Below are positions 1 to 23,610 of a stretch of DNA of 25,663 bases, in pieces. The notes below the pieces were generated by a model. It was not told where the DNA came from and ran no database searches. It saw nothing but the letters and a program-made list of their open reading frames with translations. Every line of letters starts with the position of its first letter. The first letter of the stretch is position 1. The position numbers and the translations under genes are program-made. This DNA is from a virus (lineage: Duplodnaviria > Heunggongvirae > Uroviricota > Caudoviricetes): the IMG/VR virus record IMGVR_UViG_3300032315_000486. One strand, 5' to 3'.

Positions 1-26
1 ACTTTCGAGGTTTTTGCATCAGCCAT
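1..26 (-). CDS. 5' end of a small gene (MADAKTSK...), truncated by the window edge
   Basis: AAGGAG RBS 6 nt before ATG at 26; own promoter at 61-93. Confidence 0.55.
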
Positions 27-166
27 TGCTTTCTCCTTCGCTTCTTGGCTTCTTCAATACAATCTTTATAGGCGATTCTCAGCGGGTGTGCAAGAAGAAA
101 TTTGCGGCGGCTACTAGGAAAGAATCCTTTGAAATCAATGACTTAGCCGCCGGGGCGCCGCACCTC

Positions 167-337
167 CTAAGTGCTTGAAACTCTAGGGTTTTTTCTCTCT
201 GCGTCATACCATCCACGGAACCAACATTTGGCGTAGATGTGACCTTTAGTATAGGGGCAGGAGAACTCCCACCCCTTGAGATACATATCGCGGCCAGCAT
301 TGTAAGCCACTTGACGATTAGCGTGCAGATATACCAT
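167..337 (-). CDS. 56-aa ribosome modulation factor (RMF)-like protein, not in ORF track
   Basis: Manual translation MVYLHANRQVAYNAGRDMYLKGWEFSCPYTKGHIYAKCWFRGWYDAERKNPRVSST; GGGAG RBS; G-x-CPY-x-W-x2-GW-x2-A pattern of the RMF family. Confidence 0.7.
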   Translation of the reverse strand: MVYLHANRQVAYNAGRDMYLKGWEFSCPYTKGHIYAKCWFRGWYDAERKNPRVSST

Positions 338-339
338 TG

Positions 340-543
340 TTAGCTCCCGCTGTAAACGATCATGCTCAGGCTAGAACCGACGGTGGACCGTTCAAACGGA
401 CGCTGCGGCTTGTGAGGATATGGGCAGCTAGGCACGCCACACGGCCAGATTGCGGGTTCGTTGCTCGTCTCTGACCAGCAATTAATTCCGCAGGTTGGGC
501 ATTTACCGGAAGGATCCAGTTTACGGAAATCAAGTTTGCTCAT
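340..543 (-). CDS. 67-aa Cys-rich, putative zinc-binding hypothetical protein
   Basis: AAGGAG RBS; promoter at about 566-594; CPTC..C and C-x4-C clusters. Confidence 0.75.
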   Translation of the reverse strand: MSKLDFRKLDPSGKCPTCGINCWSETSNEPAIWPCGVPSCPYPHKPQRPFERSTVGSSLSMIVYSGS

Positions 544-749
544 AGGCGTCTCCTTTGTTAATATATTTATAAGCGATTCTCAGGCATCAAGCAAGCGCAA
601 AGTTTCTTTTGTTGCCAGCATGTTAGCAGACTCAGCGCCTAAATCGCTAACTGATTGATTCGATACAGTTTTTACACCTACTTTTCACAATTTTACCACC
701 GGCGCAGGCGTGAGCCTGCGCTATGGCAGGCTCAACTTTATACCTCGTT

Positions 750-932
750 TTACAACTCCAACTTGTCAAAGCCTTCCTGGACCGTAGCGATTTCATCGCC
801 AACCCCGTCGGGAAATACAACCCATAGAGTAGTCGAGATACTACCGTCAGTCAGGATTTCATTTTCGATTTCAATCTTGCCTACAACCGATTCGTAAATC
901 GTAGTCTTGAAGGTCAGGCCAGTCAGGTCCAT
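750..932 (-). CDS. 60-aa acidic hypothetical protein
   Basis: GGAG RBS before ATG at 932; promoter at about 957-985. Confidence 0.7.
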   Translation of the reverse strand: MDLTGLTFKTTIYESVVGKIEIENEILTDGSISTTLWVVFPDGVGDEIATVQEGFDKLEL

Positions 933-1065
933 TTGCATCTCCATTGCTGATTATTATTTATCGCATAACTCGCCGCGCTGTGCAACAGCTAAAATCGTGT
1001 GTAGTTTCAGTAGGTTAAGTTGCGGAGCGCCGCCCTTCCTAACTCATTGAGCAGCAAGGCTTTTT

Positions 1066-1257
1066 TCAGGGTTGCCAAGTAATACCTGTGATGACAAGGC
1101 AAACGCCGTTTTCATCAGGCGACAGATCGCCGTGATGATATGTGAAATAGTCGCACGCATCTTGAAGATGTTTTGCGTAAATCGTCTGCTCGTATTTGCC
1201 TTCGATAACGCCCGTGGCCGCGACAGCTTCCCAAGTGAACAGATAGTTGCCTTCCAT
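1066..1257 (-). CDS. 63-aa hypothetical protein
   Basis: AAGGAG RBS before ATG at 1257; TTGACA promoter with -35 at 1309-1314. Confidence 0.75.
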   Translation of the reverse strand: MEGNYLFTWEAVAATGVIEGKYEQTIYAKHLQDACDYFTYHHGDLSPDENGVCLVITGITWQP

Positions 1258-1392
1258 GACCGTATCTCCTTGCTTCGGTGAGATCTTTGTAGCGCGATTC
1301 GTCGGTGTTGTCAAGCATATAAAAAGCGTGTCTTTTCAATGCCTTGGATCGCGGGGCGCCGCCCCTCCTAACTCCTTGATTTTGTTGGGAAA

Positions 1393-1872
1393 TCAACAGC
1401 CCTCAAGCCGCTGATTTACCTTGACAGCGTTCAGGCAGGCAATGCCAATCTCGCGCATCTTGCGAATCACTGGGATAGCGTCGTCAAACATATAGACGGG
1501 CTTGCCACGGAACTGCTTTAGGTTGCGGAGCCGCTGAATCTTGCGCGCCTTGAGGGTGGCATCTTTGATGTGATTCTCGGAGCCATCTTCAGGACGGCAC
1601 AAAACAAGGTGAGCGTCAAGCCCGTGATGGGCGAGATAGTCGCGGTCGTCTTGATTCATGGCACGAGCCGTGCAGATGACAACGTAATTTTCGGAACGGT
1701 CCAGAGCCTTGAACGTATCGGCCAGAGGCAAGAGTGTATCGCGGAAAATGCTTTCGCGGTTTTTCATCGCGAAATAGCGGTCTAGGTCCAGAGTCCCGTC
1801 AGGACGATTCGGGGTGCGATGTTTGGAGTTGATGATCGTTTCATCAAGGTCAAAGATCACGACGCGTTTCAT
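1393..1872 (-). CDS. HAD-superfamily phosphatase (PNKP 3'-phosphatase/nucleotidase-like), 159 aa
   Basis: Motif I FDLDET, motif II CTAR, Lys in TLKARK, motif IV MFDD; GAAGGA RBS; own promoter. Confidence 0.85.
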   Translation of the reverse strand: MKRVVIFDLDETIINSKHRTPNRPDGTLDLDRYFAMKNRESIFRDTLLPLADTFKALDRSENYVVICTARAMNQDDRDYLAHHGLDAHLVLCRPEDGSENHIKDATLKARKIQRLRNLKQFRGKPVYMFDDAIPVIRKMREIGIACLNAVKVNQRLEGC

Positions 1873-1973
1873 GGTAGCTTCCTTCAGTTGATGATTATAC
1901 ATAGCGTGATTCGTTTGGCATTGCAACAGCTAAATTATCGTGTGTTTTCAGTGGCTTAGCCGCCGGGGCGCCG

Positions 1974-2120
1974 CTACCCGTAAGCCTCTGATTTCATTGA
2001 GGCTTTTAGGGCGATGCGGTTACGTTTCTTTAGCTGTTTGGGGGTTGGACCCATAGCACCTTGTTTTTTCTTAACAAGGTGCTGCACAAAAGGGTCGCGC
2101 GGTTTTGGTTGTTTTTTCAT
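1974..2120 (-). CDS. 48-aa basic hypothetical protein (MKKQPKPRDPF...)
   Basis: ATG overlaps the TGA of the upstream micro-ORF (TGATG); very Lys/Arg-rich. Confidence 0.65.
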   Translation of the reverse strand: MKKQPKPRDPFVQHLVKKKQGAMGPTPKQLKKRNRIALKASMKSEAYG

Positions 2121-2173
2121 CACACAACCCAGATAATAGCAGCGCAAATCAAGATACCGATTGCCCAAACCAT
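2120..2173 (-). CDS. 17-aa single-TM micropeptide MVWAIGILICAAIIWVV
   Basis: GAGGAG RBS 7 nt upstream; wholly hydrophobic; stop overlaps next start. Confidence 0.6.
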   Translation of the reverse strand: MVWAIGILICAAIIWVV

Positions 2174-2174
2174 A

Positions 2175-2354
2175 TTAATTCTCCTCGCTTTTATTCATCA
2201 GAATGTCAGCTTCAATCCAAGAGATTCCCTTAATTGAAGCAACCGCCTCAACAATGCCAACCATTTTACCCTCATAATAGGCATTATTCTTGCTGGTATT
2301 ATAAGCATTGCGCGCTTCTTGGTAACGCTGGCGGATGAACTCGATCTTTTCCAT
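2175..2354 (-). CDS. 59-aa hypothetical protein (MEKIEFIRQRYQEARNAYN...), not in ORF track
   Basis: AAGGAG RBS; promoter with -35 at 2402-2407; open frame to TAA at 2175-2177. Confidence 0.75.
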   Translation of the reverse strand: MEKIEFIRQRYQEARNAYNTSKNNAYYEGKMVGIVEAVASIKGISWIEADILMNKSEEN

Positions 2355-2555
2355 AGCTATCTCCTTAGCTGATAATTAACAATAGCCTGATTCGCAGCAT
2401 CGTGCAAGAGCTATTTTTCGTTGCGTTATCAGTTACTTAGCCCGACCGGCGGCGGCACGTCTAACCCCTTGAATTCACACAGAATTTCGACTGTTTACTT
2501 TCAACTTCGCACCGGCGCAGGCGAAGCCTGCACCACAGTGCAAGCCCGATCCGCC

Positions 2556-2834
2556 TCAATCAACCGCGGTCGCGCCGTATTCCAGCGCGTCCTCGTTGGA
2601 CCAACCCATCGCCCGCGCAGCGTGATATGCGCCCACCATGATTTCGTGACGGGACTCGGACGCGCGGGACTCGCGCACCGCATCCGCCTGCGCGCGCTTG
2701 CCTTCGCGCATGGCGGCGTAGATGGTCCGATCCGACTCGATAGCGCGCACGCCCGAATCAACCACGGTGGCCTTGCCACCACGTGCTGCAAACTGGGCCT
2801 TCATCGCGTCGAGGTCGAAGGAAACTTTAGCCAT
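2556..2834 (-). CDS. 92-aa Ala-rich hypothetical protein
   Basis: AGGAG RBS before ATG at 2834; TTGACG-N17-TATGTT promoter. Confidence 0.75.
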   Translation of the reverse strand: MAKVSFDLDAMKAQFAARGGKATVVDSGVRAIESDRTIYAAMREGKRAQADAVRESRASESRHEIMVGAYHAARAMGWSNEDALEYGATAVD

Positions 2835-2970
2835 AGTGATTCTCCTATCTGGGTTAAGATCAACATACGTCAAAGCCGTAGGCTCGTCAACAACTAAAAA
2901 AGCGTGTAGTTTCAATGGGTTAGCCCCGGGGGCGCCGCCCTTGCTAACCTATTGATTAGCAAGGGCTTTT

Positions 2971-3261
2971 TCATCCTATGAAAGTCTCAACCAACTCTTT
3001 TGCTTCCAGCAAACCCAGCCGAGGCGTGAAGGCGTTGCGAACATATTTGATCGCCTCAATCTTCTGGCCAGCCCGAAACGACAAGCGAGCCTTTTCCAAG
3101 GCCAAGCGATTCTCGCCGCTGGCGTATTTGGTGTAGGTGTTGTCGGGCAGGATCTCGCCCACAATGCGGGCAGCCTCGACCAGCGTCAGGGCGATGTGTT
3201 CGTCCCCGTTCCAGTCGGTGAGGATGTAGCCGTTGCGAGCCGTGCGGATAGTGTAGTCCAT
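2971..3261 (-). CDS. 96-aa protein with a ribosomal protein bL12 (L7/L12) C-terminal-like motif
   Basis: C-terminal QKIEAIKYVRNAFTPRLGLLEAKELVE; AAGGAG RBS; own promoter. Confidence 0.7.
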   Translation of the reverse strand: MDYTIRTARNGYILTDWNGDEHIALTLVEAARIVGEILPDNTYTKYASGENRLALEKARLSFRAGQKIEAIKYVRNAFTPRLGLLEAKELVETFIG

Positions 3262-3563
3262 AGCAATCTCCTTTGATGTCTTGTTAACTATAGCTGATTC
3301 GCAAGCGATGTGCAAGCCTGAAATAAGTGTTTGTTGTCAACAGTTTAGCCTCGGCGGCGGAGAGACCTGTAACCCGTTGTTTTCGCACAGTTTTTTCACC
3401 TAAAAAACACACAAAAATACCACAATTTTACCACCGGCGCAGGCTTCGCCTGCGCTATGATAGCACGGGCGGCGGTGATTCGTCAAGACCAAAAAATGAA
3501 CTGATCGAAAAATAACTTCGATTTGTAACTCGCCCGACCTAGGATATTTTATCGGGCCGCCAC

Positions 3564-3654
3564 GGGGCAATTCTTAAAATCACCGCAACCTTTTAAGAGT
3601 TGCGGCGATGGGGCAATTCTTAAAATCACCGCAACCTTTTAAGAGTTGCGGCGA
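3564..3654. repeat. Tandem duplication, period 46 bp, overlapping the HNH stop codon
   Basis: 3564-3608 identical to 3610-3654. Confidence 0.95.
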
Positions 3655-3970
3655 CTTTTCCCTCCTTAATCCCGACCGTGAAAGCGGTATTTACGATCTT
3701 TTGATTAACGGCCCAAACGCTTTCAATTACAGTTGCAGTGCGAATTGCAAAGGACCAATCATTGCCGCTTTTAGCAACGTTGCATCCTTTGCAAAGGCAT
3801 TGCAGATTCTCGATTTTAGCCTTGCCGCCATTCATTTCAGCAATTACGTGGTCACAGTCCAGATAGGGCGCATAGTTTGCAGAACCGCCAAACCCGCAAG
3901 CGCGGCAGATGTGATTGTCACGCGCCAGAACCTTTGCGCGAACCGTATCCGAGATCTTTGCCTTTGCCAT
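3626..3970 (-). CDS. HNH endonuclease, 114 aa
   Basis: CRAC...DCDHVI..NGG...NLQCLCKGCN zinc-HNH pattern; AAGGAG RBS. Confidence 0.85.
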   Translation of the reverse strand: MAKAKISDTVRAKVLARDNHICRACGFGGSANYAPYLDCDHVIAEMNGGKAKIENLQCLCKGCNVAKSGNDWSFAIRTATVIESVWAVNQKIVNTAFTVGIKEGKVAATLKRLR

Positions 3971-4135
3971 CTTCCGTCTCCCTTGCTGATGATTCTTTAT
4001 CGCACGCCGTCACGCGATTCGCAAGGACTATCTGCGCTTTTTTCAATCTTATTTTTTGCCTCACGCTATTGACACGGTTTGCGAATCGCTGTAAAATCGG
4101 CGCCAGGTGTGGCTAATCTGCCACACCCCTTGCCG

Positions 4136-4381
4136 TCATGCGGCGGCAAGGATCCCGACCTTGACAGCCCACGCGTCATCCAGAACCAGAACCGTCGGGA
4201 TGCCGACTCGGTCGCCGTCCTGCGCGGTGGCAATCACCACGCTAGCGCGGTCTTGCTCGTGACGGACAAGAATCTTGGCCTTGGGAACCCAGAGCGGCTT
4301 GACGCCAGCTTTCATGTCGCGACGCGCGACGAAGGCAACGGCGGCTTCAGTTTCGCGGACGATGTAACCGGTGGTCTGCAT
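4136..4381 (-). CDS. 81-aa hypothetical protein, paralog of 5764..6009
   Basis: Shared TGYIVRETEAA, GVKP.W.P and TAQDG.RVGIP; RBS and promoter present. Confidence 0.8.
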   Translation of the reverse strand: MQTTGYIVRETEAAVAFVARRDMKAGVKPLWVPKAKILVRHEQDRASVVIATAQDGDRVGIPTVLVLDDAWAVKVGILAAA

Positions 4382-4548
4382 GGTGGGTTCCTTCCCTGTT
4401 TCGATGATTCTTTATCGCATGAGTCGCAGCGATTCGCAAGACCTTTCTCAGATAACATTTTATGTGTCAGTGCCGATTTCCCTTGACAAGATTCCAGCCA
4501 GCCCGTATAATCGGCGCGTGATTCGGGCTTGCGCCCGAATCGGTCACC

Positions 4549-4731
4549 TCATATTCCAAGGACAGAGGCAACCAAGCCGACAGCCGACACGGCGATCATA
4601 GCAACCACAAGGAGAGTCAGAACGAGATCCTGCCGATTCCCGCTGTTAATCAAAGCATTGCGCTCTTTCTTGCGCAGGTAGGTTTCGCTGCGCTGGATCG
4701 AGGCACGTTGGACGGCGTCATAGGTCTGCAT
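4549..4731 (-). CDS. 60-aa protein with C-terminal TM segment
   Basis: AGGAG RBS; hydrophobic LVLTLLVVAMIAVSAVGLVASVLGI. Confidence 0.75.
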   Translation of the reverse strand: MQTYDAVQRASIQRSETYLRKKERNALINSGNRQDLVLTLLVVAMIAVSAVGLVASVLGI

Positions 4732-4867
4732 GGTGATCTCCTTTTCTGTTATCTAACCTTAGTGCGATTCGCTTGGCGTGTCTACGGCTAAAAAACTGTG
4801 TGTTATCAAGCAGTTAGCCTCGGCGGCGGCCCCCTTGCTAACTCATTGATTAGCAAGGGTTTTCCGG

Positions 4868-5053
4868 TCACTCAGTTGCCATGTCCATCTCACACGTCAG
4901 CGCGAAGTCATTGACGTTGAACGTCTTTTCCAGCAAGATCTGCTGTTCCTCGATTCGAACGGCGCAAGACTCGGCTGTCATACCAGTTTCAATGGCATAA
5001 AACATATCAGGTGAATTGAATCCAAACACTGTGAGGATGAGAGCGAAGGGCAT
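4868..5053 (-). CDS. 61-aa hypothetical protein
   Basis: AAGGA RBS; operon-like with 5065..5250. Confidence 0.65.
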   Translation of the reverse strand: MPFALILTVFGFNSPDMFYAIETGMTAESCAVRIEEQQILLEKTFNVNDFALTCEMDMATE

Positions 5054-5064
5054 TTCTTGATTCC

Positions 5065-5250
5065 TTATTTGAGGTCGGCATTAGCATATAATGCGTCGAC
5101 ATATTTAGCGATTGCGGCTTGGCGGATCGGATCTTTTGCATTATCTGCAAGGCGCTTTTGATTTCTGCAATGTGCCATGCAATACTTAAAATGAAAGATA
5201 AAGTAAACCAATCCATCTGCGCGGATTGCGTCTAAAATATGTTGCTTCAT
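5065..5250 (-). CDS. 61-aa hypothetical protein
   Basis: AAGGA RBS 8 nt before ATG. Confidence 0.65.
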   Translation of the reverse strand: MKQHILDAIRADGLVYFIFHFKYCMAHCRNQKRLADNAKDPIRQAAIAKYVDALYANADLK

Positions 5251-5265
5251 TTTAGGATTCCTTTT

Positions 5266-5308
5266 CGGTTTCAGACTGGTCGGTTTCAGACTGATCGGTT
5301 TCAGACTG
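5266..5308. repeat. Three 15-bp tandem units CGGTTTCAGACTG(GT/AT)
   Basis: Units start at 5266, 5281, 5296. Confidence 0.9.
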
Positions 5309-5319
5309 TGACCTGGCCG

Positions 5320-5484
5320 TTAGGCCAGATCCTCCCGTTCGTCGATTTCGGCTTTCACTTCCTCGACCGAGTCGGCGTTGACCTGCCAGTCGTGCGACTC
5401 GCCGTCGAAGCGGTCGTCATGGGTGGCGACGAAGCCGACGTAAGCGGCGGTGATGGTCCAACCTTTGTAAGCGATGCGGGTCAT
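5320..5484 (-). CDS. 54-aa acidic hypothetical protein (MTRIAYKGWTI...)
   Basis: AAGGAG RBS before ATG at 5484; promoter at 5519-5547. Confidence 0.75.
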   Translation of the reverse strand: MTRIAYKGWTITAAYVGFVATHDDRFDGESHDWQVNADSVEEVKAEIDEREDLA

Positions 5485-5663
5485 GAGAAGCTCCTTGTCT
5501 CTCTCGTTTCGATGATTCTTTATCGCACGCCCCGCCGTGATTCGCAAGACCTTTGTTCAAATATCTTTTCACGCTAGACCCCGATTTCGCTTGACAAGGT
5601 TAGCGAATCGCTATAAAATCGGCGCCTGATTCGGCGAATCGCCCAGTCGGCGCGTCCTACCTC

Positions 5664-5693
5664 ATTATAGCATGGCGAATCACCTGCTGTCAA
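5664..5693 (-). promoter_or_regulatory. Leftward TTGACA-N18-TATAAT promoter with GATTC in the spacer
   Basis: Direct consensus match; no adjacent ORF. Confidence 0.55.
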
Positions 5694-5763
5694 GGGGAAC
5701 AAAACGTGAACACGGACGGCAAAGAAAAGGCGGGCAAGCTGCCCGCCCCGCCTAGGCGCTGGC

Positions 5764-6009
5764 TTAGGCCAGCACGCCGATCCGATCAAGGAAAGCCGGA
5801 TCCACCTCGAGGGTCGCGGGAATGCCGACCCGCTCACCATCCTGCGCGGTTTGGATCCGGCGACCCGCGCAATCCGACTCGCGCACGCGACCCAGTTTCT
5901 TGCGCGGGAACCAAATCGGCTTGACGCCTGCGACGCCTGCATCGGCTTGACGCACGAAAGCAATGGCGGCTTCAGTTTCGCGAACAATGTATCCGGTCAG
6001 GTTCAGCAT
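5764..6009 (-). CDS. 81-aa hypothetical protein, paralog of 4136..4381
   Basis: Motifs shared with 4136..4381; GGAG RBS; leftward promoter with -35 at 6082-6087. Confidence 0.8.
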   Translation of the reverse strand: MLNLTGYIVRETEAAIAFVRQADAGVAGVKPIWFPRKKLGRVRESDCAGRRIQTAQDGERVGIPATLEVDPAFLDRIGVLA

Positions 6010-6161
6010 GGCAGTTCTCCGATTCGCGGGCTTGGCGTCTTGCCTTCCCTATGCCTATACAATGCACGAATCCGCCGCGCCTTGCAAGCGGAATCTTTCG
6101 CTTGCCATGCCGGATCGCATGGCGTATAAAGTAAGGGTAGGCAACAAAGGAAACCCGAATC

Positions 6162-6539
6162 ATGGCCAAGGCTCGCATCTCTGACAAGGTTAAACTGGCG
6201 GTCCGCGCATCCTACGCGGGTTGCGTGTGCTGCGGAACCTATGACGCTTTCGACACGGGCCACATGATTGCCGAGTCGCGCGGCGGGTCGCTTGACCTGT
6301 CCAACCTGCGGTTGATGTGCGATCGCTGCAATGGGGCCATCCGCAATGCGAATTGCCAATTCGCCCGCTACGCGACCCCGAACGATGGCGCTCGCGCCGT
6401 AGTAGAAACTAATCGCGCCGCGTGGTTTGCTTATTGCGATTTGGAAATCCGGTATTGGGATGCAGAGGATCGGGTTATTAAGGGAAAGGCAAAACAGAAT
6501 CCTTATAAGCGGCCCGCGCCTTTTAGCGCGCCGCTCTAA
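6162..6539 (+). CDS. HNH-like protein, 125 aa, possibly degenerate active site
   Basis: CVCC...DTGHMI..RGG...NLRLMCDRCN; AAGGA RBS; TTGCCA-N17-TATAAA promoter at 6102-6130. Confidence 0.8.
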   Translation: MAKARISDKVKLAVRASYAGCVCCGTYDAFDTGHMIAESRGGSLDLSNLRLMCDRCNGAIRNANCQFARYATPNDGARAVVETNRAAWFAYCDLEIRYWDAEDRVIKGKAKQNPYKRPAPFSAPL

Positions 6540-6543
6540 TTAG

Positions 6544-6980
6544 ATTAAGGCGGGGGCAGTATTGCCCTCGCTTAATAGGGGGGCGGATATTAGGGCAGTT
6601 ATCGGGGCAGTTATAAGGGCAGTTAACAATTTGATTAGCTTAAAATCATGCTAGATTTTAATCTATTACAACCTAGGGCGGTTCTTAGGACTTGCTGATT
6701 CGGTGATTCGCGGGGCCCTTCGCCACGAAAACCATCAGGTATTTTTTCAAACTTTCCCAGAACGCCGTTGAACTCCGTTCAAACCGATACCGACCCGTTC
6801 AAACCGATACAACCTTACCTAGACTTGATGTCAATTTCGTTTCGTCAAAATCCGACGACCAAGTGACACAAGAAATTCTAGGATTCATCCCAGCCGCCTG
6901 CGCACAGGTTTCAACCTGTTTAACTCGTCTCACAACTGTCTCACACCCTCTCACAACCGCTCACACCCGCTCTTCGGGTG
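6544..6980. repeat. Non-coding repeat cluster: hairpin 6544-6576; GGGCAGTTA x3 (6593, 6605, 6617); CCGTTCAAACCGATAC x2 (6775, 6795); CTCACA x4 (6929, 6940, 6950, 6960); hairpins 6904-6919 and 6963-6980
   Basis: Read directly from sequence. Confidence 0.85.
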
Positions 6981-7006
6981 TCAAACTAAATTTAAAAAAA
7001 AGAAGT

Positions 7007-7035
7007 TTGACTTCGTTCGCAGTTCATCATATAAT
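7007..7035 (+). promoter_or_regulatory. Late promoter TTGACT-N17-TATAAT with upstream A-tract
   Basis: TATAAT at 7030-7035, 6 nt before ATG 7042. Confidence 0.75.
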
Positions 7036-7041
7036 TATTGT

Positions 7042-7479
7042 ATGAACAGACGTGAATCTCAACTAAAAATCATCGACTCGCTCAAGCGAATAGACGGACG
7101 CACAAGTCCGTGGAATCCCTCATACACTTTTAATGTGGACGTACACGACAACGTACTTGACCATGACGAATACGTAGACAACATCAACTCGTTTCCTTGT
7201 GTGATGATTATCATTACCGACACCCAGATTCGTCACATCGGCGGTGGCGAACGTTATGTGGTTAGTAGTTTTCGAATCCGTGGAATCACTTGGGATGAAA
7301 GTGTTGAAGATGCTGGTGAGCTGTTGGCTGATGACATTGAACATGCTCTCTCCTATGTTAGACAAGACAATCCAGAGTTTGACGAGGTCAGACTTGACAC
7401 GCTACAAACAGATGAAGGACTCAACGCACCTCTAGGAGCTGTCATAGTCCAAGGAACCATGGTGTATAGACATGAATGA
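7042..7479 (+). CDS. Tail terminator-like protein (T5 p142-like)
   Basis: FPCV and C-terminal TDEGLNAPLG resemble recalled T5 p142 (FPYV, TDEGLLAPYG). Confidence 0.65.
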   Translation: MNRRESQLKIIDSLKRIDGRTSPWNPSYTFNVDVHDNVLDHDEYVDNINSFPCVMIIITDTQIRHIGGGERYVVSSFRIRGITWDESVEDAGELLADDIEHALSYVRQDNPEFDEVRLDTLQTDEGLNAPLGAVIVQGTMVYRHE

Positions 7480-7921
7480 ATTAACAACCTACTCAGACAA
7501 TCTGAACTCTAGTCTAGACGCCCCTGAGCTAGACCCACAACACCTGCTTATAGCTAATGAACTGTTAGCCGGTAAGACGATTCCACAAATCGCTGATGAT
7601 TTCGGTATCTCGGCGGATCGCGTAACCGCGATTGTGGAGCGTAGTGATACCAAGCGATATGTGGATACTGTGATCATGAATCAAGGATATCTACACCGTT
7701 CTCGTCGTCTCTCGATCATCAATAAAGTTATCGACGAAAAACTTCAAGAGGCTGCCGAGACAGGCATGTACTCTAAAAAAGACTTATTTGACTGGATCAA
7801 GCTGCTAAATGATATGGATCGTGATGCTCGTCCTAAACAGCCGACAACTGCTGTGCAGGTAAACAACACTACTAACTATACCACCCTTATGCAAGATCTG
7901 TTTAAAGGAGATGGCAAATGA
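7472..7921 (+). CDS. terS: Terminase small subunit (T5-like)
   Basis: N-terminal HTH-like segment; IDEKLQEAAETG and the NYTTLMQDL tail resemble recalled T5 TerS. Confidence 0.75.
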   Translation: MNELTTYSDNLNSSLDAPELDPQHLLIANELLAGKTIPQIADDFGISADRVTAIVERSDTKRYVDTVIMNQGYLHRSRRLSIINKVIDEKLQEAAETGMYSKKDLFDWIKLLNDMDRDARPKQPTTAVQVNNTTNYTTLMQDLFKGDGK

Positions 7922-8298
7922 GTGCCGGACGCTATGACATAACACTAGAACAGGGAGCCACATTTGATCTTCCTCTCCGTTATCGCACTCCTGCCGGAGT
8001 GGCTGTTAACCTGACTGGTTATTCGGCCAAGATGCAGGTTCGCGAAGCTCCTGCTAGCAGTCTGCTTGTTGAGTTCAACTCGACACTCACCGCTAACGGA
8101 TTCATATGGTTGACTGGATCAGCTGAAAATCGTGAAGACGGAGCTAACGGTAATGTTCGTGTGTACATGACTGCTGCTAACACAGCTGCGCTGCCTCGTT
8201 TTGCAGGTCGTTATGATCTAGAACTTCGTGATGCTAGCGGTTATGTGACCCGCCTGCTTGAAGGTCAGTTCCGTGTAGAACCTGAGATCACTAGATGA
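7918..8298 (+). CDS. Ig-like fibre-attachment/collar protein (T5 p132/LtfC-like)
   Basis: QGATF...NLTGYSAKMQVR...YDLEL...RLLEG pattern of phage beta-sandwich adaptors. Confidence 0.6.
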   Translation: MSAGRYDITLEQGATFDLPLRYRTPAGVAVNLTGYSAKMQVREAPASSLLVEFNSTLTANGFIWLTGSAENREDGANGNVRVYMTAANTAALPRFAGRYDLELRDASGYVTRLLEGQFRVEPEITR

Positions 8299-8942
8299 AT
8301 CAAGTAACTGCTAATCCCATCCAAATGGTGGTGGAGGTCAATACCCCCACTCCTACTACCGTAACTGTGGAACGTCCGCAAGCCACAGTAGTGGCTGTGG
8401 CTGAGCAAGGTCCTCGTGGTCCTGCTGGTGTAAGTGGCACAGCTAACACATTTCTCATAGCTGGCGATGGCCTAACTGGTGGCGGCCCTATTTCTTCAAA
8501 CGTAACAGTTGCTGTAAATGCTTCTGTTGCTCGCGTAGGCGGGGTTCTGTGGTTAGACTATGCAAATGCTCGTGTAGGAATTAACCAAACTGATCCTCGT
8601 ATAGATCTTCAGATTGGTAGTGCTGGTCTGGGATCGTACACAGCCAACCTAACTAACGGAACTCCAAATCAGATCGTAGATCAGTGGTCGGCTCTTGATT
8701 TTAGATCAGCTAAGTATCAAATACAGCTGCACGCTCCTGCAGTTGACCAGTACGAGATAAGTGAGCTGTTTATAGTTCACAATGGTGGAGAATCATACTT
8801 GACTGAGTATGCTATCATAAACCAAGGCGTCAGACTAGCGCAATACAGCGCTTCAATATTTAACAATACAGTGCGACTTCTATGCAGTCCAACATACGGA
8901 ACCAGCTCGGTTAAGGTGTTTAGAACTGTTATCGCGACATAA
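8295..8942 (+). CDS. Short fibre/virion protein with a collagen-like triplet and C-terminal FRSAKY domain
   Basis: GPRGPAG; C-terminal about 90 aa similar to that of 8955..10700. Confidence 0.6.
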   Translation: MNQVTANPIQMVVEVNTPTPTTVTVERPQATVVAVAEQGPRGPAGVSGTANTFLIAGDGLTGGGPISSNVTVAVNASVARVGGVLWLDYANARVGINQTDPRIDLQIGSAGLGSYTANLTNGTPNQIVDQWSALDFRSAKYQIQLHAPAVDQYEISELFIVHNGGESYLTEYAIINQGVRLAQYSASIFNNTVRLLCSPTYGTSSVKVFRTVIAT

Positions 8943-8954
8943 AGGAAAACAAAA

Positions 8955-10700
8955 ATGGCAACATTAAAAGATTTTGTAGTTAATCGCGGGCTGGTAGTAA
9001 ACACTCAGGCAATCATCAACGGAGTTGATGTTCTAGCTAATGATGGCGTAACACTGCTTAGTGCCTACGCCAACGACGTGGCTACCCTAAACACACTACG
9101 AGCTAACGATTTTAACTCATTCACAACTCTGAACGGTAGAATCAACACTGTTCAAGATAACGTGGGGTCCCTCGTAGCTAATTACTCAGCTAATGACTAT
9201 GTGACATGGCTGGCAGCTATGGCCAACGACTTCTCAACCTATACCACTCTGAATGGTCAAATCAACACTGTTCAGAACAACGTAGGTTCTATCGTAGCTA
9301 ACTACTCAGCTAACGATTATGTGACATGGTTGGCTGCTCAGGCTAATGACGGAGTAACACTAGCTTCCGCTCGTGCAAACGACTATTCGACATATACCAC
9401 ACTAGTTTCCGCATATCAGTCAAATGATTATGCTACACTGCTCAGCGCTTATGCAAATGATGTTTCGACTCTTAATACGGCTCGTGCAAACGATTATGCA
9501 ACTCTACTCGCAGCACAAGCCAATGATGGCGTAACCCTACTTAACGCACGCTCAAACGACTACTCAACTTACACCACTCTGGTAAATGAGTACCAGGCTA
9601 ACGACAGTGCTACATATAACACACTGTTAAACGGATATCGCGCTAACGACTATGCCACTTGGAACGGTCTAAACTCGTACACAAACATCAAGGCTAACTC
9701 AGATGTTAATGTTATAGCAGGTAGTGGTCTTAGCGGTGGCGGAGCTTTAACGGGCAACGTAACTCTATCAGTAGACTCTACTGTTGTACGTACCACAGGT
9801 GCTCAAAATATTGGCGGGTTGAAAACTTTTACAGACAGCGTAGTTATATCGGGTGATCTTACTGTTGAAGGCAACACTACTACAATTGGTACTACTTCGC
9901 TTCTAGTTGAAGACAAGTTTATCGAGCTAGCCTCTAATACAACTGGCGTTCCTAGTGGAGACGTAGGTATCTATCTGAACCGCGGAAACGAAGGTAACTC
10001 TGCAATCTACTATGATCAGAGTGAAGGATACTTTGCTCTAGTTAACACTCTTGATCCTGCAACAAACACTGTGGTGAGTCCTACTAGCTATGCTGCTCTT
10101 CGCATTGGAACTCTAATAGTGTCCAACACTCAAGTGGTCACAAATCTTAACGCTGATCAACTAGACGGCCAAAGCGGTTCCTACTATCTAGATTTTGGAA
10201 ACCTAACAAACACTGGTGTTATAACTCTAGATCGTGTGTTAGCTAATGGAAACTCATCTTCGCACTCAATCAGCGTTGGTGGGCTAACAGTAGACGCTAA
10301 CACATTCCATGTGGACTCAACTAACAACTTTGTAGGTGTTCGCACTCTAACTCCACTAGCTCCGCTACAAGTAGAAGCTGTTGGTTTTGATACCAGCTTC
10401 CTTGCAACTACCACAACAACCTCCAACCAGGTGTTAGATTCGTTTGCAGCCGCATCCTTTAGAACTGCTAAATATACCATCCAAGTTCACGATACAGCCA
10501 ACAACTACTACCACTCTTGCGAGATCTTGCTGATCCATGACGGTGCTACTGTGTACATGACTGAGTATGCTATTGTGTTTACAAGCGTATCTCTGGCATC
10601 ATTTAACGCAGACATAAGCGGTGGAAATGTTAGACTTCTAGTAACTCCTACCAACAATACTAATAACATACGCGTTGTAAGATCAACGTTGTTAGTATAA
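8955..10700 (+). CDS. Fibre-like virion protein with ANDY coiled-coil repeats
   Basis: N-terminal KDFVVNRGLVV; many (A/S)ND repeats; GDLTVEG fibre motif; C-terminal FRTAKY domain. Confidence 0.7.
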   Translation: MATLKDFVVNRGLVVNTQAIINGVDVLANDGVTLLSAYANDVATLNTLRANDFNSFTTLNGRINTVQDNVGSLVANYSANDYVTWLAAMANDFSTYTTLNGQINTVQNNVGSIVANYSANDYVTWLAAQANDGVTLASARANDYSTYTTLVSAYQSNDYATLLSAYANDVSTLNTARANDYATLLAAQANDGVTLLNARSNDYSTYTTLVNEYQANDSATYNTLLNGYRANDYATWNGLNSYTNIKANSDVNVIAGSGLSGGGALTGNVTLSVDSTVVRTTGAQNIGGLKTFTDSVVISGDLTVEGNTTTIGTTSLLVEDKFIELASNTTGVPSGDVGIYLNRGNEGNSAIYYDQSEGYFALVNTLDPATNTVVSPTSYAALRIGTLIVSNTQVVTNLNADQLDGQSGSYYLDFGNLTNTGVITLDRVLANGNSSSHSISVGGLTVDANTFHVDSTNNFVGVRTLTPLAPLQVEAVGFDTSFLATTTTTSNQVLDSFAAASFRTAKYTIQVHDTANNYYHSCEILLIHDGATVYMTEYAIVFTSVSLASFNADISGGNVRLLVTPTNNTNNIRVVRSTLLV

Positions 10701-10727
10701 TGTCGGTCATCTAGGGATAGGGAACAG

Positions 10728-12338
10728 ATGGCAGATAAAGATTTTAGAGTCAAGCTAGGCTTGCACGTAGGCGCTAACGCTTACATAGAAGGAAATATAA
10801 CAAGCGTAGATCTTGTTCAAATGAACGTAGCCTCGCCAGCGACTGTTGGCGGGGCTGGTCAGCTTGCATGGAATACTACCGACAGAACTCTTGACATAGG
10901 CGTGAATGCTAATACCACACTACAGGTAGGTCAAGAGCAGTACTACTATGTTCGTAATCATACCGCAGTTACAATTCCTGATGGTACTGCGGTAATGGCT
11001 AATGGTGTTGGGGGCGCCAATAGGATACACATAGAGCCTGCTATAGCTAATGGCAGCGTACCTCCCAAGTATATACTCGGTATCACCACTGAAGAGATTG
11101 CAGCGGGGCAGACCGGTTTTGTTACATCATTTGGTAAGGTAAGAAACCTTAACACCTCTATGTTTAGTGAGGGCGACATTTTATATGCTAGTCCTAATAC
11201 TTATGGAGGTTTGTCTAACACCATCCCAATAGCTCCTAATAATATTGTTACCTTGGCTATTGTAACAAATAAAAGTGCTAGTACCGGCGAGTTATTTGTC
11301 CGTCCTATATACGGAAGTACCTTATATGAAAACGAAGATGTACACCTAGAGAGTGTATCTGACGGTCAAGCGCTAGTTTATGTTACTGCTAATGCTCGTT
11401 TTGAGAATAAAAACGTAGCTGCTGCCTCATCTAACAGTTTTACAACTATAAGCGTAAGCGGCCAAAGCAACGTTGTTGCAGACTCAAGCACCGACACTTT
11501 AACTCTGGCTGCTGGTACAGGCATTTCACTAACTACTGATGCTGCTACTGACACTATAACTATTACCAGCACTTCTAGTGGTGGAGACGCTTCTAATGCG
11601 TGGGTGAATGCAAACGACTACTCCACTCTACTGTCAGCTCGTTCAAATGATTTTAACACACTTCAGACAGCCTATGCAAATGACTATGCAACGTTATTAA
11701 CAGCGCAGGCTAATGATTTTAACACACTGCTGTCAGCGCGTTCTAATGATTATGCAACTCTGTTATCTGCGCAAGCCAATGACGGAGTTACTTTACTAAA
11801 TGCGCGTTCTAATGATTATGCAACTCTGTTATCTGCTTATGCAAATGACTTTGCACTATACTCAAGTGTGCGAAGCTTTAATGCTTTCGTAGTAGCAGGG
11901 CAAAGTGATGTGGTCGCAGACGGTTTCACTGACACTGTGACTCTGGTAGCCGGTACAGGCATTTCATTAACTACTAATGCTGCTGCTGATAGCATAACAA
12001 TCGCAAGCATAGGACCTCGACTAGTGTATCTAGCTGACTCTACTTCTATAACTGTGAACACAGATACGACGGATGTTGCTCAGCAAAATAATACTCAAGC
12101 TGTTGGAACTCTAACTGTGAATGCTCCTACAGGAACTATAACTGATTCAGAGAAATTTATTCTCAGAATAAAGAGCACTAATGTTCAGACATTCAGTTGG
12201 AATGGAGTTTTTGCAGGCTCTACAGATGGTTCGCTCCCCACTGTCACTAGCGGTGCTGGAAAAACAGACTATATGGGTTTCATGTATATGACTGCCGATA
12301 CTAAATGGCACATGATAGCCAAGAACTTTGGATTTTAA
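10728..12338 (+). CDS. Fibre-like virion protein with ANDY repeats between duplicated beta segments
   Basis: N-terminal KDFRVKLGLHV; two copies of GQS.VVAD..TDT.TL.AGTGISLTT; ANDYATLLSA repeats. Confidence 0.7.
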   Translation: MADKDFRVKLGLHVGANAYIEGNITSVDLVQMNVASPATVGGAGQLAWNTTDRTLDIGVNANTTLQVGQEQYYYVRNHTAVTIPDGTAVMANGVGGANRIHIEPAIANGSVPPKYILGITTEEIAAGQTGFVTSFGKVRNLNTSMFSEGDILYASPNTYGGLSNTIPIAPNNIVTLAIVTNKSASTGELFVRPIYGSTLYENEDVHLESVSDGQALVYVTANARFENKNVAAASSNSFTTISVSGQSNVVADSSTDTLTLAAGTGISLTTDAATDTITITSTSSGGDASNAWVNANDYSTLLSARSNDFNTLQTAYANDYATLLTAQANDFNTLLSARSNDYATLLSAQANDGVTLLNARSNDYATLLSAYANDFALYSSVRSFNAFVVAGQSDVVADGFTDTVTLVAGTGISLTTNAAADSITIASIGPRLVYLADSTSITVNTDTTDVAQQNNTQAVGTLTVNAPTGTITDSEKFILRIKSTNVQTFSWNGVFAGSTDGSLPTVTSGAGKTDYMGFMYMTADTKWHMIAKNFGF

Positions 12339-12349
12339 TTGAGGACACA

Positions 12350-12583
12350 ATGATAAAAATAGACTTTGAAATGACAAGTGATAACGGTGCGTGGATTTAT
12401 AGAGATGCTCTACATCTACCCGACGACCACACCTATACAGAAGCGGACATTGAAGTGATGAAGCAGGCTCGCTTTGCCAGATGGTTAGAAGTTATTACTG
12501 CTCCGCCTGTTATAGTTGAAGAAACTCCAGTAGATGTTTTACCCGATGAACCATCGGTTGAAGACATTCCTGTGCAGGAGTAA
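12350..12583 (+). CDS. 77-aa possible fibre-assembly chaperone
   Basis: GAGG RBS before ATG at 12350; small acidic gene between fibre and adhesin genes. Confidence 0.5.
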   Translation: MIKIDFEMTSDNGAWIYRDALHLPDDHTYTEADIEVMKQARFARWLEVITAPPVIVEETPVDVLPDEPSVEDIPVQE

Positions 12584-12585
12584 TC

Positions 12586-15500
12586 ATGGCTGATAGATAT
12601 TGGGTAGGAGGCACTGGTACTTGGAACGCAGTCTCTACAACTAACTGGTCTACTAGTAGTGGCGGCAGCAGCGGTGCTTCAGTTCCTACCGCTGCAGATA
12701 ACGTAATTTTTGATAGCGGTAGTAATGTTGGCACTGGTGCGTTTACTGTTACAACAGGTGTTTCAACTAGACCGTGCCTAAACCTAACTATATCTGGGCT
12801 TGATGGTGCAATGACTCTTGCTGGCAGTACTGGAATAACCGTGTCTGCAAGCATGTCACTTCCAGCCGCAAATTTAAGTTGGACTAATACAGGTACTTTA
12901 ACCTTTGCTGCTACTACCTCACAAACAATAACATCAAATGCAGTCACAATCGCTTCGCCAATTACTTTTAGTGGAACTGGAGGTACATGGGCACTACAAG
13001 ATGCACTAACATCCACCGGTTCGGCAGTAACACTGAGTGCGGGTACGTTAAATTTAAATGGTTATACATTAACTTGTCCTACATTTGTTTCTAACGTATC
13101 AGTAGCGCGCACCATAGCTTACGGGTCCACGGGTATAATAAATATAACAGGTACTGGCACTGTTTGGAATACCAGTACATTAACTAACTTTAGCTACACA
13201 GGTACTAGTAACGTAAGATTGACTAATGCGGGTTCTACAGCAATTACCATAACTCCAGGTTCTGCTACCGCAGCTCAAGCACAGAACTTTGCTATAACTG
13301 CAGGTACATATGCTCTCACCATAAGTGCTGGCAGCAATATAAACAACTTAGATTTTACAGGCTTTAGCGGATCGTTTACACTTGGCGGCACAGTAACACT
13401 CTATGGCAATTTGACTCTAAGTAGTACAACAACCAGTACGCTTGTTGCTAATAGTCTTACATTTGGTGGTACGAGTGTAACCCAAACTCTTACAACTGCC
13501 GACAAGAATATTGGGTGTAGTGTTAACATCAACGGTTCCGCTAATACTGTAAGACTAGTCGGAACATTAACCCAAACCTCTACACGTGCATTCACTCTGA
13601 CAAGTGGTACCCTTGACATAAACTCACAAACAACCAGTGTGGGTATTCTTACTATTGTTACTGGCACAAAGGCAATTACTAATGGCACTATTAATGCCGT
13701 ATCCGTCACTCATACTAGTGGTGCTATTGCTGTTACCTCTACTGCCACAATAGTAACTACAGGTACTTACACGTTTACAGCTGGATCAATAGATATTGGC
13801 AATAGTGCTGTTCTATCTGTAGGTGCCTTCAGTTCTGCCAATACCGGTACTAGATCAATTTCTTATAACACTTCAGGAGAGTTGCGACTTACCGGTACTG
13901 GCACTGTGTGGGATACGGGCACAGTAACAAACTTTAGTTATACAGGTACTAGTAACATAAGATTGACTAACTCGGGCTCTACTGCTATAACTATTACTGC
14001 AGGGTCTATGTCTGCCGCTCAGGCTCAAAACTTTGCTATAACAGCTGGGACATACACACTAACTACCACAACTAGTGGTGCAATGAATAATTTAGATTTT
14101 ACAGGGTTTAGTGGCACTTACGCACAGGCAGCTACTTCTATATCTGTTTTTGGGAATTTAGTATATTCTGCTACAATGACGACGTCTACTACAGCAGGTA
14201 GTGGTTTTATAATAATGGCTGCAACTAGCGGTACTGATACTATAACTACAAACGGCATTACTGTAAACAATAACATACGATTCAATGGTGTTGGTGGCAC
14301 ATTTCAGTTAGCCGATAACTTCACTCAAGGCACTACTAGTTATTTTAATATACAAAATGGAACTGTTGACTTCAATAACGTTATTTATTCAATAGGTGTT
14401 CTAGAGTTCACCTCTGGTACTAACTCGTATATAAATTATGGCGGTACTTTAAATCCTGCTTCCGTTATTCATACCTCAGGAACTGTTAATACTGGAACTG
14501 GTGCATTAATCGTCACTACAGGTTCATATACTTTTACTGCAGGAACTCTAAACATAAACAACGGTGTCACGCTATCTGTACGTTCCTTTTCATCTGTTAA
14601 TACCAATACGCGTGTAATAGCTTTTGGCACAGGCAATATAACTACTACAGGTAGTGGAACTATGTGGAACGTGACGGCGGCTACAGGTTTTAGCTATACA
14701 GGCACTCCAACAGTACGTATAAATAATAATACTGCTACCTCTGGATCTATAAATAATACAGCAACTGCTGCCAGCGCAGTTAACTTCAATATCGTTAGTG
14801 GTACATATACTTTAACAATAAGTACTGCCGGCTCTTTTAATGATATAGACTTTACAGGGTTTGCAGGTACTATGTCATTTGGTAGTACTAACATTACTAT
14901 GTATGGTAACTTAACACTAGCGACCGGTATGACAACTACAGGTACTGCTAGTCAAACTCATATTACATGGGCACACACTACTGGAACTGAGATTATAACT
15001 TCTAATGGAATAACTTCTAATTTTGGAATTAGAGTAAACGGAACTGGTGGAACTCTAAGGTTTGCTGATACATTCAATCAGGGCTCTACTCAAGTATTCA
15101 TATTAACAGCAGGTACTTTTGATCTTAATTCGCAGTCTGTTACTGCAGGAATATTTAATATAAATACTGGTACTCATGCTATCACTAACGGCACTTTAAA
15201 TTGTGCTTCAGCCACTCATTCTAGCGGTGACTTGTCGATAGGTACTGGTTATAATGTTATTTGCTCCGGTGCTTATACATTTGTACTAGGTTCTATAACT
15301 ATAAACAATGATGTAAATTTATCAGTTGGATCGTTCAGCTCGGCCAACACCAATACTAGATCTATTGCTTTTGGTGCTGCTGGTACTATAACTACTACCG
15401 GTACTATTAACGTATGGAACGTCACCGGTGTTAGTGGATTTTCTTTTACTGGTACGAGTAAAATTATAGTAAATAATAATACTTCTACAGCCGTAAACGT

Positions 15501-17187: not shown

Positions 17188-17223
17188 TAGTAACGAGACA
17201 AGTTAAATACTATAAAATAGTGC

Positions 17224-17252
17224 TGGACATAGTGCTATAAAAATTGTAAATT
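17224..17252 (+). promoter_or_regulatory. Possible late promoter TGGACA-N17-TAAATT
   Basis: In the 100-bp gap before 17288; partial consensus. Confidence 0.4.
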
Positions 17253-17287
17253 ATATATTAGGTTATAACCTTAAATAGGAAGATAAA

Positions 17288-18160
17288 ATGACATCAAACG
17301 TATTTGTAACACCCAGAGCAGTGAGTACTATTAGTAGGGGCAGAGTAAATCACAACTCATCTCTACAAGCACTACTGCAGAATTTTTATAGTACTGCAGC
17401 ACCCGCTTCTGCATCAGTAGATTTAGAAGGAGTACTAGGTCTACAAAATGGAATGCTTTGGAGGCAGGGCGGTACCAGGCCACAAGACGGAAGACTATTT
17501 GTATATGATACTAATAGTCCTAGTCATCCGTTATATTCTGGATATACTCGTGAAGGCATATCTCATATAACGCAGAATAACTTAGCGCAAGCAACTTCGG
17601 CATTGTCTAATAATTACTTTCAGAGTGGTGAAATAGTAAGAATACGTGATGAAGATAAACTTTATCTTGTTAATGAATCTAGAACCTCGTTGATTGCAAT
17701 AGGTTCTGGAACTAGTACAGCAGCTAATATATGGCAAACTGATAATAGCTATGTATATTACACTGGTGCTTTAAATGTGGGTATAGGTACGGCTACCCCC
17801 ACTTACAAGCTTCAAGTTAGTGGTAATACTTACAGTACCGTATACTATGAGACTAGAGGTACGCTATCTGGTACTTCTGTTGCTATAAACGGTCAAACAG
17901 GTACAGTATTTACTCTAACCACTAGTGGAAATACAACATTTACATTTACCAATCCTCCAGCTTCAGGCATTGCTTATGGTTTTACATTACTAGTTACTGC
18001 TGGGGGCAGCCATTCTCTCACTTGGCCTGCTAGCGTAAGATGGAGTAGCGGGTCTCAGCCGATAGCACCTGCTACTGGAGAGACAGACATATATGTATTT
18101 TTCACTTACGACCAGGGTACTAATTGGTTTGGTTTATTAGCTGGGGAGTCTATGGCCTAA
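17288..18160 (+). CDS. 290-aa tail-fibre-like protein
   Basis: NVGIGTATP fibre motif; C-terminal LTWPASVRWSSGSQP...TDIYVFFTYDQGTNWFG domain; AGGA RBS. Confidence 0.6.
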   Translation: MTSNVFVTPRAVSTISRGRVNHNSSLQALLQNFYSTAAPASASVDLEGVLGLQNGMLWRQGGTRPQDGRLFVYDTNSPSHPLYSGYTREGISHITQNNLAQATSALSNNYFQSGEIVRIRDEDKLYLVNESRTSLIAIGSGTSTAANIWQTDNSYVYYTGALNVGIGTATPTYKLQVSGNTYSTVYYETRGTLSGTSVAINGQTGTVFTLTTSGNTTFTFTNPPASGIAYGFTLLVTAGGSHSLTWPASVRWSSGSQPIAPATGETDIYVFFTYDQGTNWFGLLAGESMA

Positions 18161-20598: not shown

Positions 20599-20606
20599 GG
20601 AATATA

Positions 20607-21890: not shown

Positions 21891-21918
21891 ACAACTTATA
21901 TTTTTTACATTTTAATTT

Positions 21919-21947
21919 TTGACTTTGTGAATTTTTAGACTTATAAT
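21919..21947 (+). promoter_or_regulatory. Late promoter TTGACT-N17-TATAAT for HNH-portal-protease/capsid
   Basis: Same hexamers as the 7007-7035 promoter; T-tracts upstream. Confidence 0.8.
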
Positions 21948-21957
21948 AGGATAAGAA

Positions 21958-23600: not shown

Positions 23601-23610
23601 GGAGCATACA

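Follow-up and report, generated by a model that had tools for sequence, protein, structure and literature searches.

At Mu Pe and at lambda pL, a host IHF site lies upstream of a phage sigma70 early promoter, and at Mu Pe IHF also relieves H-NS repression. IHF sites are also part of the BIME-1/RIP (RIB) elements of E. coli, repeated extragenic modules in which they are joined to G/C-rich palindromic units. The left terminal repeat of phage T5 holds dmp, A2, an HNH endonuclease gene and many small genes with host-type promoters. Finally, in the PeSLs of T4-type phages a G/C-rich dyad, an A/T stretch and a sigma70 early promoter are combined between small orphan genes (Arbiol et al. 2010, PMC2839356; Comeau et al. 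2014, PMC4122927). Here we analyse a repeated element with points of likeness to each of these systems, found in a tailed phage of the class Caudoviricetes represented by IMG/VR record IMGVR_UViG_3300032315_000486. The stretch of DNA that was analysed, which we will call the window, is 25,663 bp long and is the reverse complement of positions 1-25,663 of a 78,366-bp IMG/VR contig (G000).

Each element has a 44-bp core (TCA..TGA) consisting of a distal arm, a G/C-rich centre and a proximal arm in inverted orientation, and precedes a sigma70-like promoter of a small gene. We consider it probable, judging from the sequence, that the element is a pair of oppositely oriented IHF-type sites of the H' class, separated by a GC clamp of ~18 bp, phased upstream of the individual pre-early promoters, and that it also acts as a recombination linker. 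The aligned copies directly show the motif and its geometry, its confinement to the block of early genes and its conservation among the phages of a clade, while the protein binding the arms would be host IHF or a very IHF-like DNABII protein. Nine copies are present in the window (Table 1). A preliminary description of this DNA had reported nine 48-bp units, which add 2 bp to each side of the core, and all of them, as well as the arms it quoted, were recovered exactly as written. Using nhmmer, we detected 18 copies in the contig, all of them within a single 10.6-kb block of small genes (genome positions 20,812-31,448); elsewhere in the 78-kb contig there was no nhmmer match with E <0.1. The IHF consensus WATCARNNNNTTR was similarly concentrated, with 20 occurrences in the 11.9-kb early block vs 8 in the remaining 66.5 kb of the contig.

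Arrays were also found in related IMG/VR contigs, and a pattern scan of IMG/VR yielded further contigs with arrays of up to ~20 copies. Together with this contig, the related contigs provided 107 unique in-register copies after removal of duplicates, i.e. 214 arms, which were scored for likeness to IHF sites by degenerate consensus, by lambda sites and by per-column counts (position 0 is the T of TCAA). In the arm core, T (92%), C (100%), A (100%) and A/G (92/7%) are followed by four variable positions (N4) and then by T (98%), T (100%), A/G (93/7%) and G (82%). Conservation is seen at the same positions as in the IHF consensus, which was matched exactly by 98/214 arms and with one mismatch by 102/214, while N4 varied freely. 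The middle T of TTR was constant in all 214 arms; when this base is changed, IHF affinity is lowered more than 100-fold (bioRxiv 10.1101/382655). Exact WATCAANNNNTTR occurred eight times in the window vs 1.38 expected, a count reached in 0/100 shuffles, and six of the eight occurrences were arms. Likewise, 13 of the 14 occurrences of TCARNNNNTTAG in the window (2.35 expected) were arms.

The likeness extends beyond the core. At positions -16 to -11, an A/T tract (at least five of six positions W) was present in 187/214 arms vs 13% of background hexamers, with A at -16 to -14 in 73-78% of arms and W at -13 to -11, and it was seen when distal and proximal arms were counted apart, whether or not a hairpin was present. 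Such an A-tract stabilises the fully bent IHF complex (bioRxiv 10.1101/382655). In direct sequence comparison, the A6 tract of the lambda attP H' site had an identical offset, preceding the T of TCAA by the same 10 nt. In addition, 96% of arms had W at position -7, 9 bp from the CAA step; this position is presumably where the second IHF kink would fall. CtrA or DnaA boxes were considered as well and rejected, for TTAACCAC was found in only three recently duplicated copies and is not general.

Both the distance between the arms and their distance to the promoter are nearly fixed. When spacers of 14-28 bp were allowed, the arm-to-arm length was exactly 44 bp in 98/105 unique elements. The gap between TTGA and the TTG of the -35 hexamer was 20-22 bp in 65 of the 87 consensus-level sigma70 promoters scored, with a mode of 21, and this fixed phasing ties the module to transcription. 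As for the window, the preliminary description had given a gap of 19 bp for seven of its 48-bp units, with 18 bp (615-658) and 39 bp (135-178) for the others, and these values were reproduced. The long gap of copy 9 corresponds to an addition of 20 bp, or about two extra helical turns, so the helical face is kept. The centre of the element is 88% G+C vs 31% in the outer flanks and is conserved by clade: it reads GGCGC(C) here and in close relatives, and GCCCCGGC in a different clade. Contrary to the earlier statement, the spacers do not simply diverge.

From these distances, a mechanism can be proposed. Two IHF dimers would bind each element, with bend centres near -55 and -102, i.e. 47 bp or ~4.5 helical turns apart, and the G+C-rich spacer between the sites would act as a stiff clamp. 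Assuming bend centres ~2 bp to the outer side of each TCAA, the U-turns at the two sites would be in anti-phase, giving an S-shaped (or Z) DNA path. In copy 2912-2955, the distal core is found around -100 and the proximal core at roughly -57 to -67, with the A/T tract of the latter at -46 to -41, which we take to be the position of the proximal UP-element subsite; the promoter-proximal tract may thus coincide with this subsite. Such a fold could set promoter output, either by activation via upstream DNA wrapped on RNA polymerase, or by shielding the promoter from silencing or read-through. As to function, activation, insulation, folding and titration are equal guesses.

An inverted repeat of this kind might also act as a hairpin, in DNA or RNA. 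However, complementarity between the arms equalled the expectation from column frequencies at positions 0-18, partner arms matched in N4 no better than shuffled partners (1.64 vs 1.76 matches), and arm-to-arm covariation was seen only at two central pairs, where it reflects the two clade-specific centre types. Since the arms do not covary, a hairpin or cruciform fails to explain them, and a single long hairpin or cruciform was rejected also on account of minimum-free-energy folds which differ between copies. The motif is conserved in both orientations and is therefore read as duplex DNA rather than RNA. A search of window positions 1-7000 against Rfam (E up to 1) matched no RNA family. Some centres of the type GGGGC-GGC-GCCCC hinted that the GC centre might be a hairpin promoter of the N4 type, which has a stem of 5-7 bp and a 3-nt loop. 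This candidate was given up, since the central sequence changes from clade to clade, the virion genes resemble those of T5, and every copy is followed by a conventional sigma70 promoter.

Some distal arms do take part in hairpins. In 47/107 of them, a stem of at least 6 bp could be formed with the outer flank, and in 34 of these 47 the hairpin was accompanied by an A-run and reads as an intrinsic terminator on the antisense strand (two such hairpins are listed in Table 1); the stem covaries in two copies. The TCAA-N4 portion of the distal arm supplies the loop of these antisense terminator-like hairpins, which are located at the 3' ends of the sense genes. On the sense strand, the G/C-rich stem followed by a U-run that marks a Rho-independent terminator was absent from all window copies, as the T-run is located 10 nt past the palindrome. 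A terminator scan returned 9 sites vs 8.5 expected in shuffles, and the only one flagged at the elements was on the antisense strand.

These hairpins bear on the possibility that the elements are stem-loops of the PeSL type, i.e. terminators, attenuators or RNA 3'-end hairpins coupled to an early promoter and kept mainly as recombination linkers, with no dedicated binder. As in PeSLs (PMC2839356), small orphan genes are separated by a G-run/C-run centre, followed by an A/T-rich stretch and then by a sigma70 promoter, and the distal-arm hairpins, with stems covarying in some copies, point in the same direction, as does a cassette difference between two relatives. This concerns the relative G001 (94% terminase identity), which carries 12-14 copies of different sequence. 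A cassette consisting of a promoter and a 63-aa gene (window 1257-1336 region) is missing in G001 (L032 about 5100-5200), and the junction is found inside a single chimeric element, whose upstream flank corresponds to G000 copy 24285 (82% identity) and whose downstream flank corresponds to copy 24614 (73%). By sequence comparison, the elements thus mark boundaries of cassettes gained or lost between relatives, as PeSLs do, and being repeated and similar, they could serve as crossover points for such gain and loss. Nevertheless, we regard the PeSL-type explanation as quite unlikely. Besides the missing arm covariation, the absence of a sense-strand terminator and the shuffle-level frequency of terminator-like sites, the predicted folds vary by copy, and the GC centre alone gives stems of only 4-6 bp. 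Moreover, recombination needs similarity only, which leaves the invariant core beside the freely varying N4 unexplained.

If the arms are protein-binding sites, the phage itself might encode the binder. The array contains two genes for A2-like proteins, one of 121 aa (Table 1) and a second paralog, 77% identical, 3 kb further on (G000 28691-29017; L105:3092-3418). Both match phrog_1725 'DNA binding protein', show 36% identity to T5 A2 (E 7e-8) and carry a weak sigma70 region-4-like helix-turn-helix. T5 A2, annotated as a DNA-binding pre-early protein in the T5 record, has the same SVRSKL helix segment. The arms could accordingly be operators of a phage regulator, most likely these paralogs, with which the phage would activate or repress its pre-early promoters or retain the DNA transferred first; the resemblance to IHF sites would then be a coincidence. 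Several observations argue in this direction or against IHF as the binder. In addition to the two copies here, an A2-like protein was present in one to three copies in all four array-bearing relatives searched. The G at arm position 11 (82%) and the clade-specific GC centre are conserved, although they lie outside the IHF consensus. On the 34 distal arms with antisense hairpins, the A-run is equally explained as the T-run of an antisense terminator. Furthermore, the copies were gathered with a profile derived from strict copies, which inflates the invariance of the core, but not the pattern in N4 and in the flanks. All contigs are fragments (about 10-71% complete), which leaves room for another phage-encoded binder, and both the presence and the specificity of host IHF are assumed.

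On the other hand, the arm is asymmetric (TCAA-N4-TTAG), not the dyad expected of a helix-turn-helix dimer, and in its core positions, free N4 and A/T tract 10 nt away it agrees point by point with an IHF site. In T5, the terminal repeat contains A2 but shows neither the element nor an enrichment of the motif, and the arms are constant across clades whose A2-like proteins fall to 53-57% identity. We therefore hold binding by A2-like regulators to be rather unlikely, if worth keeping in mind. As for IHF, no match to the HU/IHF family (PF00216) was detected in this contig or in seven related fragments, and given this result in all eight, any DNABII binder would need to be a host protein. A scan of genomes with the tail-fibre protein, aimed at the host, found nothing. 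In 596 Gb of prokaryote genomes (185,579 species), the paired pattern gave 43 scattered single matches, about the number expected by chance, and was enriched in none of them. The two-IHF promoter module put forward in the preliminary description is hence supported in part: the core, N4, TTR, the A/T tract, the absence of covariation, the 44-bp length and the distance to the -35 speak for it, and the A2-like rival binder against it. That description saw nine of the 18 copies, and the conserved GC centre, the antisense hairpins (~40% of distal arms), the role in cassette exchange and the A2-like paralogs had escaped it.

The contig is classed as linear, with a CheckV completeness of ~50%. Structural genes (tail, terminase, portal, protease-capsid) occupy the plus strand at window 7,000-25,663, and the terminase is ~40% identical to those of T5-like phages; in a blastn search of window 1-8000 against 50,697 phage records, no cultured relative was matched. 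The small genes lie on the minus strand at window 1-6,400, in a block which extends past the left edge of the window. The G+C content is 48-55% in the small-gene block (window 1-7000) and 36-47% in the structural genes (7001-25663). Homologs of two T5 pre-early genes are present in the block, dmp (34% identity, E 2e-16) and A2, and an HNH endonuclease gene is located within the array. By this gene content, the block can be regarded as corresponding to the pre-early DNA that T5 transfers in its first step. The dmp and A2 homologs lend indirect support to the idea of first-injected DNA put forward in the preliminary description. In this linear fragment, the block may be first-entering DNA or a terminal repeat by likeness to T5; by the same analogy, the folded promoter DNA would be what enters the cell first.

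This setting brings up another role for the elements, as cis sites of some other DNA transaction: T5-type single-strand nicks at the GC centre, a pause or anchor for stepwise entry, or sites of a homing or recombination enzyme. The resemblance of the block to the first-step-transfer region, the HNH endonuclease gene in the array and the centre, a short palindrome conserved within each clade, would all fit. Such a role is highly improbable in our view, as the fixed phasing to the -35 in 65/87 promoters is at odds with it, the centre differs between clades while the arms are unchanged, and the T5 repeat regions carry DnaA boxes, not this motif. A distant relative (G002, 72% nucleotide identity in the terminase) showed neither the element nor a comparable repeat array in the 16 kb that hold its distant A2-like genes, the last stretch of an incomplete contig.

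Table 1. Element copies, linked promoters and other features of the window (window positions; element positions refer to the 44-bp core).
Feature	Position	Strand	Remarks
Copy 1	4806..4849	-	both arms exact WATCAA-N4-TTR; extended A/T tracts to 4790-4865
Copy 2	3337..3380	-	degenerate, distal arm begins ACAA; weak nhmmer match
Copy 3	2912..2955	-	top-scoring, GGCGCC centre
Copy 4	2429..2472	-	CCGCCGCCG-type centre
Copy 5	1948..1991	-	TCAG variant in both arms; stop codon of upstream gene inside distal arm
Copy 6	1336..1379	-	with copy 7 borders cassette absent from relative G001
Copy 7	1007..1050	-	
Copy 8	615..658	-	centre and proximal arm degenerate; core-to--35 gap 20 bp (18 bp from the 48-bp unit)
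Copy 9	135..178	-	stop codon of upstream gene in distal arm; core-to--35 gap 41 bp (39 bp from the 48-bp unit)
Sigma70-like promoter 3' of copy 1	4756..4784	-	TAGACA-17-TAAGGT, consensus match only
Promoter 3' of copy 2	3287..3315	-	TTGCAC-17-TATAGT
Promoter 3' of copy 3	2862..2890	-	TTGACG-17-TATGTT
Promoter 3' of copy 4	2379..2407	-	TTGCAC-17-TATTGT
Promoter 3' of copy 5	1898..1926	-	TTGCAA-17-TATGTA; overlapping alternative ATGCCA-16-TATAAT
Promoter 3' of copy 6	1286..1314	-	TTGACA-17-TACAAA
Promoter 3' of copy 7	957..985	-	TTGCAC-17-GATAAA
Promoter 3' of copy 8	566..594	-	TTGCTT-17-TATAAA
Promoter 3' of copy 9	65..93	-	TTGCAC-17-TATAAA
121-aa A2-like helix-turn-helix protein	1..26	-	start only; continues to G000 25638-26003
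HAD phosphatase	1393..1872	-	homolog of T5 pre-early Dmp; 34% identity, E 2e-16
Antisense intrinsic-terminator-like hairpin	2937..2971	+	11-bp stem, 8-nt loop, T5; loop and one stem arm are copy 3 distal arm
Antisense terminator-like hairpin over copy 1 distal arm	4832..4865	+	

Several further features of the early promoters were observed. A GANTC site (GAATC) lies 3-5 nt (mostly 4 nt) 5' of the -10 hexamer in seven of the nine element-linked promoters of the window, for example at 4766-4770 and 1296-1300, and in three alternative cassettes GANTC overlaps the -35 (TTGCGAATC). These promoter sites are present in this clade and were not seen in the promoters of more distant array-bearing contigs (L060, L048); they may reflect CcrM-type methylation or a host factor. 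In the alternative cassettes, the IHF-type element is replaced by another intergenic module (3970-4135, 4382-4548 and 5485-5763), in which three near-perfect sigma70 promoters (TTGACA-17-TATAAT or TAAAAT) are found on the plus strand, antisense to the small genes, at 4069-4097, 4483-4511 and 5591-5619. Each is followed within ~10 nt by a hairpin, e.g. at 4519-4540, and the promoter at 4483 would yield a predicted antisense RNA of ~350 nt ending at the plus-strand terminator-like hairpin over copy 1.

Among the small proteins, one of 96 aa (window 2971-3261, minus strand) matches the C-terminal domain of Pfam Ribosomal_L12 with its C-terminus (E 1.4e-5, just under the curated cut-off), and a nucleoside 2-deoxyribosyltransferase-like protein of 148 aa is encoded inside the array (L105:578-1024, G000 26177-26623; Pfam PF05014, E 6.5e-6, below the cut-off). 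Other repeats in the window comprise a 46-bp tandem duplication with 93% identity (3556-3647), three 15-bp tandem units TCGGTTTCAGACTG(G/A/T) at 5265-5309, directly ahead of the start codon for minus-strand gene 5065-5250, and a group of 12-bp GGGGCAGTTA-type repeats, three to four in number, at 6580-6636. This last group is closed by an isolated IHF-consensus match without mismatches (6624-6636), which lies between the divergently oriented early block and tail genes.

A further-reaching version of the two-site reading would treat the whole array as a dedicated scaffold for host IHF. With at least 36 predicted high-affinity H'-class sites per 10.6 kb, a number that would double for a terminal repeat, DNA arriving in linear and torsionally relaxed form might be folded into a zig-zag fibre. 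Each pre-early promoter would thereby gain an upstream region that is already bent and topologically isolated, as a substitute for supercoiling, and the fibre would at the same time help in drawing in, anchoring or protecting the first-step DNA. We consider this extension unlikely; if true, it would represent a strategy of nucleoid-protein exploitation undescribed for T5-like phages.

If IHF does bind the paired sites, the element would rank among the most regular natural stereospecific promoter architectures, a 44-bp two-bend module placed 21 bp from the -35 and found in >100 copies in a clade of uncultured, freshwater-type T5-like phages. The copies would then offer a natural series of spacing, phasing and sequence variants for the study of upstream bending at sigma70 promoters, bear on the expression of first-entering DNA in a phage with two-step injection, and connect cassette shuffling of the PeSL kind with an architectural protein of the host. 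A practical use of the modules as small, portable promoter-insulator parts is conceivable as well.

In comparison with the systems introduced at the outset, the predicted single site is closest to lambda. The arms and attP H' have in common the core consensus, the 10-nt distance from A/T tract to TCAA and W at the position of the second kink, and lambda H1 reads TCAA-N4-TTAG, like the arms here. Unlike in attP, which is a recombination site, two predicted sites are arranged head-to-head over a GC clamp within 44 bp, in 18 copies phased to promoters. At Mu Pe and lambda pL, there is a single site centred ~80-90 bp upstream of one promoter, whereas here a pair is predicted near -55 and -102 at nearly every promoter of the array. 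The T5 left terminal repeat, similar to the early block in gene content, has no such element, its IHF consensus count is 1 vs 1.7 expected, and its conserved non-coding repeats carry DnaA boxes. In BIME-1/RIP the order is REP-IHF-REP, in the chromosome and without coupling to promoters, while the order here is IHF-GC-IHF, which places the element outside that family. Finally, the elements share with PeSLs both their composition and the cassette indels between relatives with junctions in the repeat. PeSLs are, however, defined by a functional terminator stem-loop, with no IHF boxes described, whereas the arms of the present elements do not covary and the phage is T5-like; because the defining sense-strand terminator stem-loop was not found here, the element is not a PeSL in the strict sense, but a module which probably unites a PeSL-like position between early cassettes with a pair of lambda-like IHF sites.

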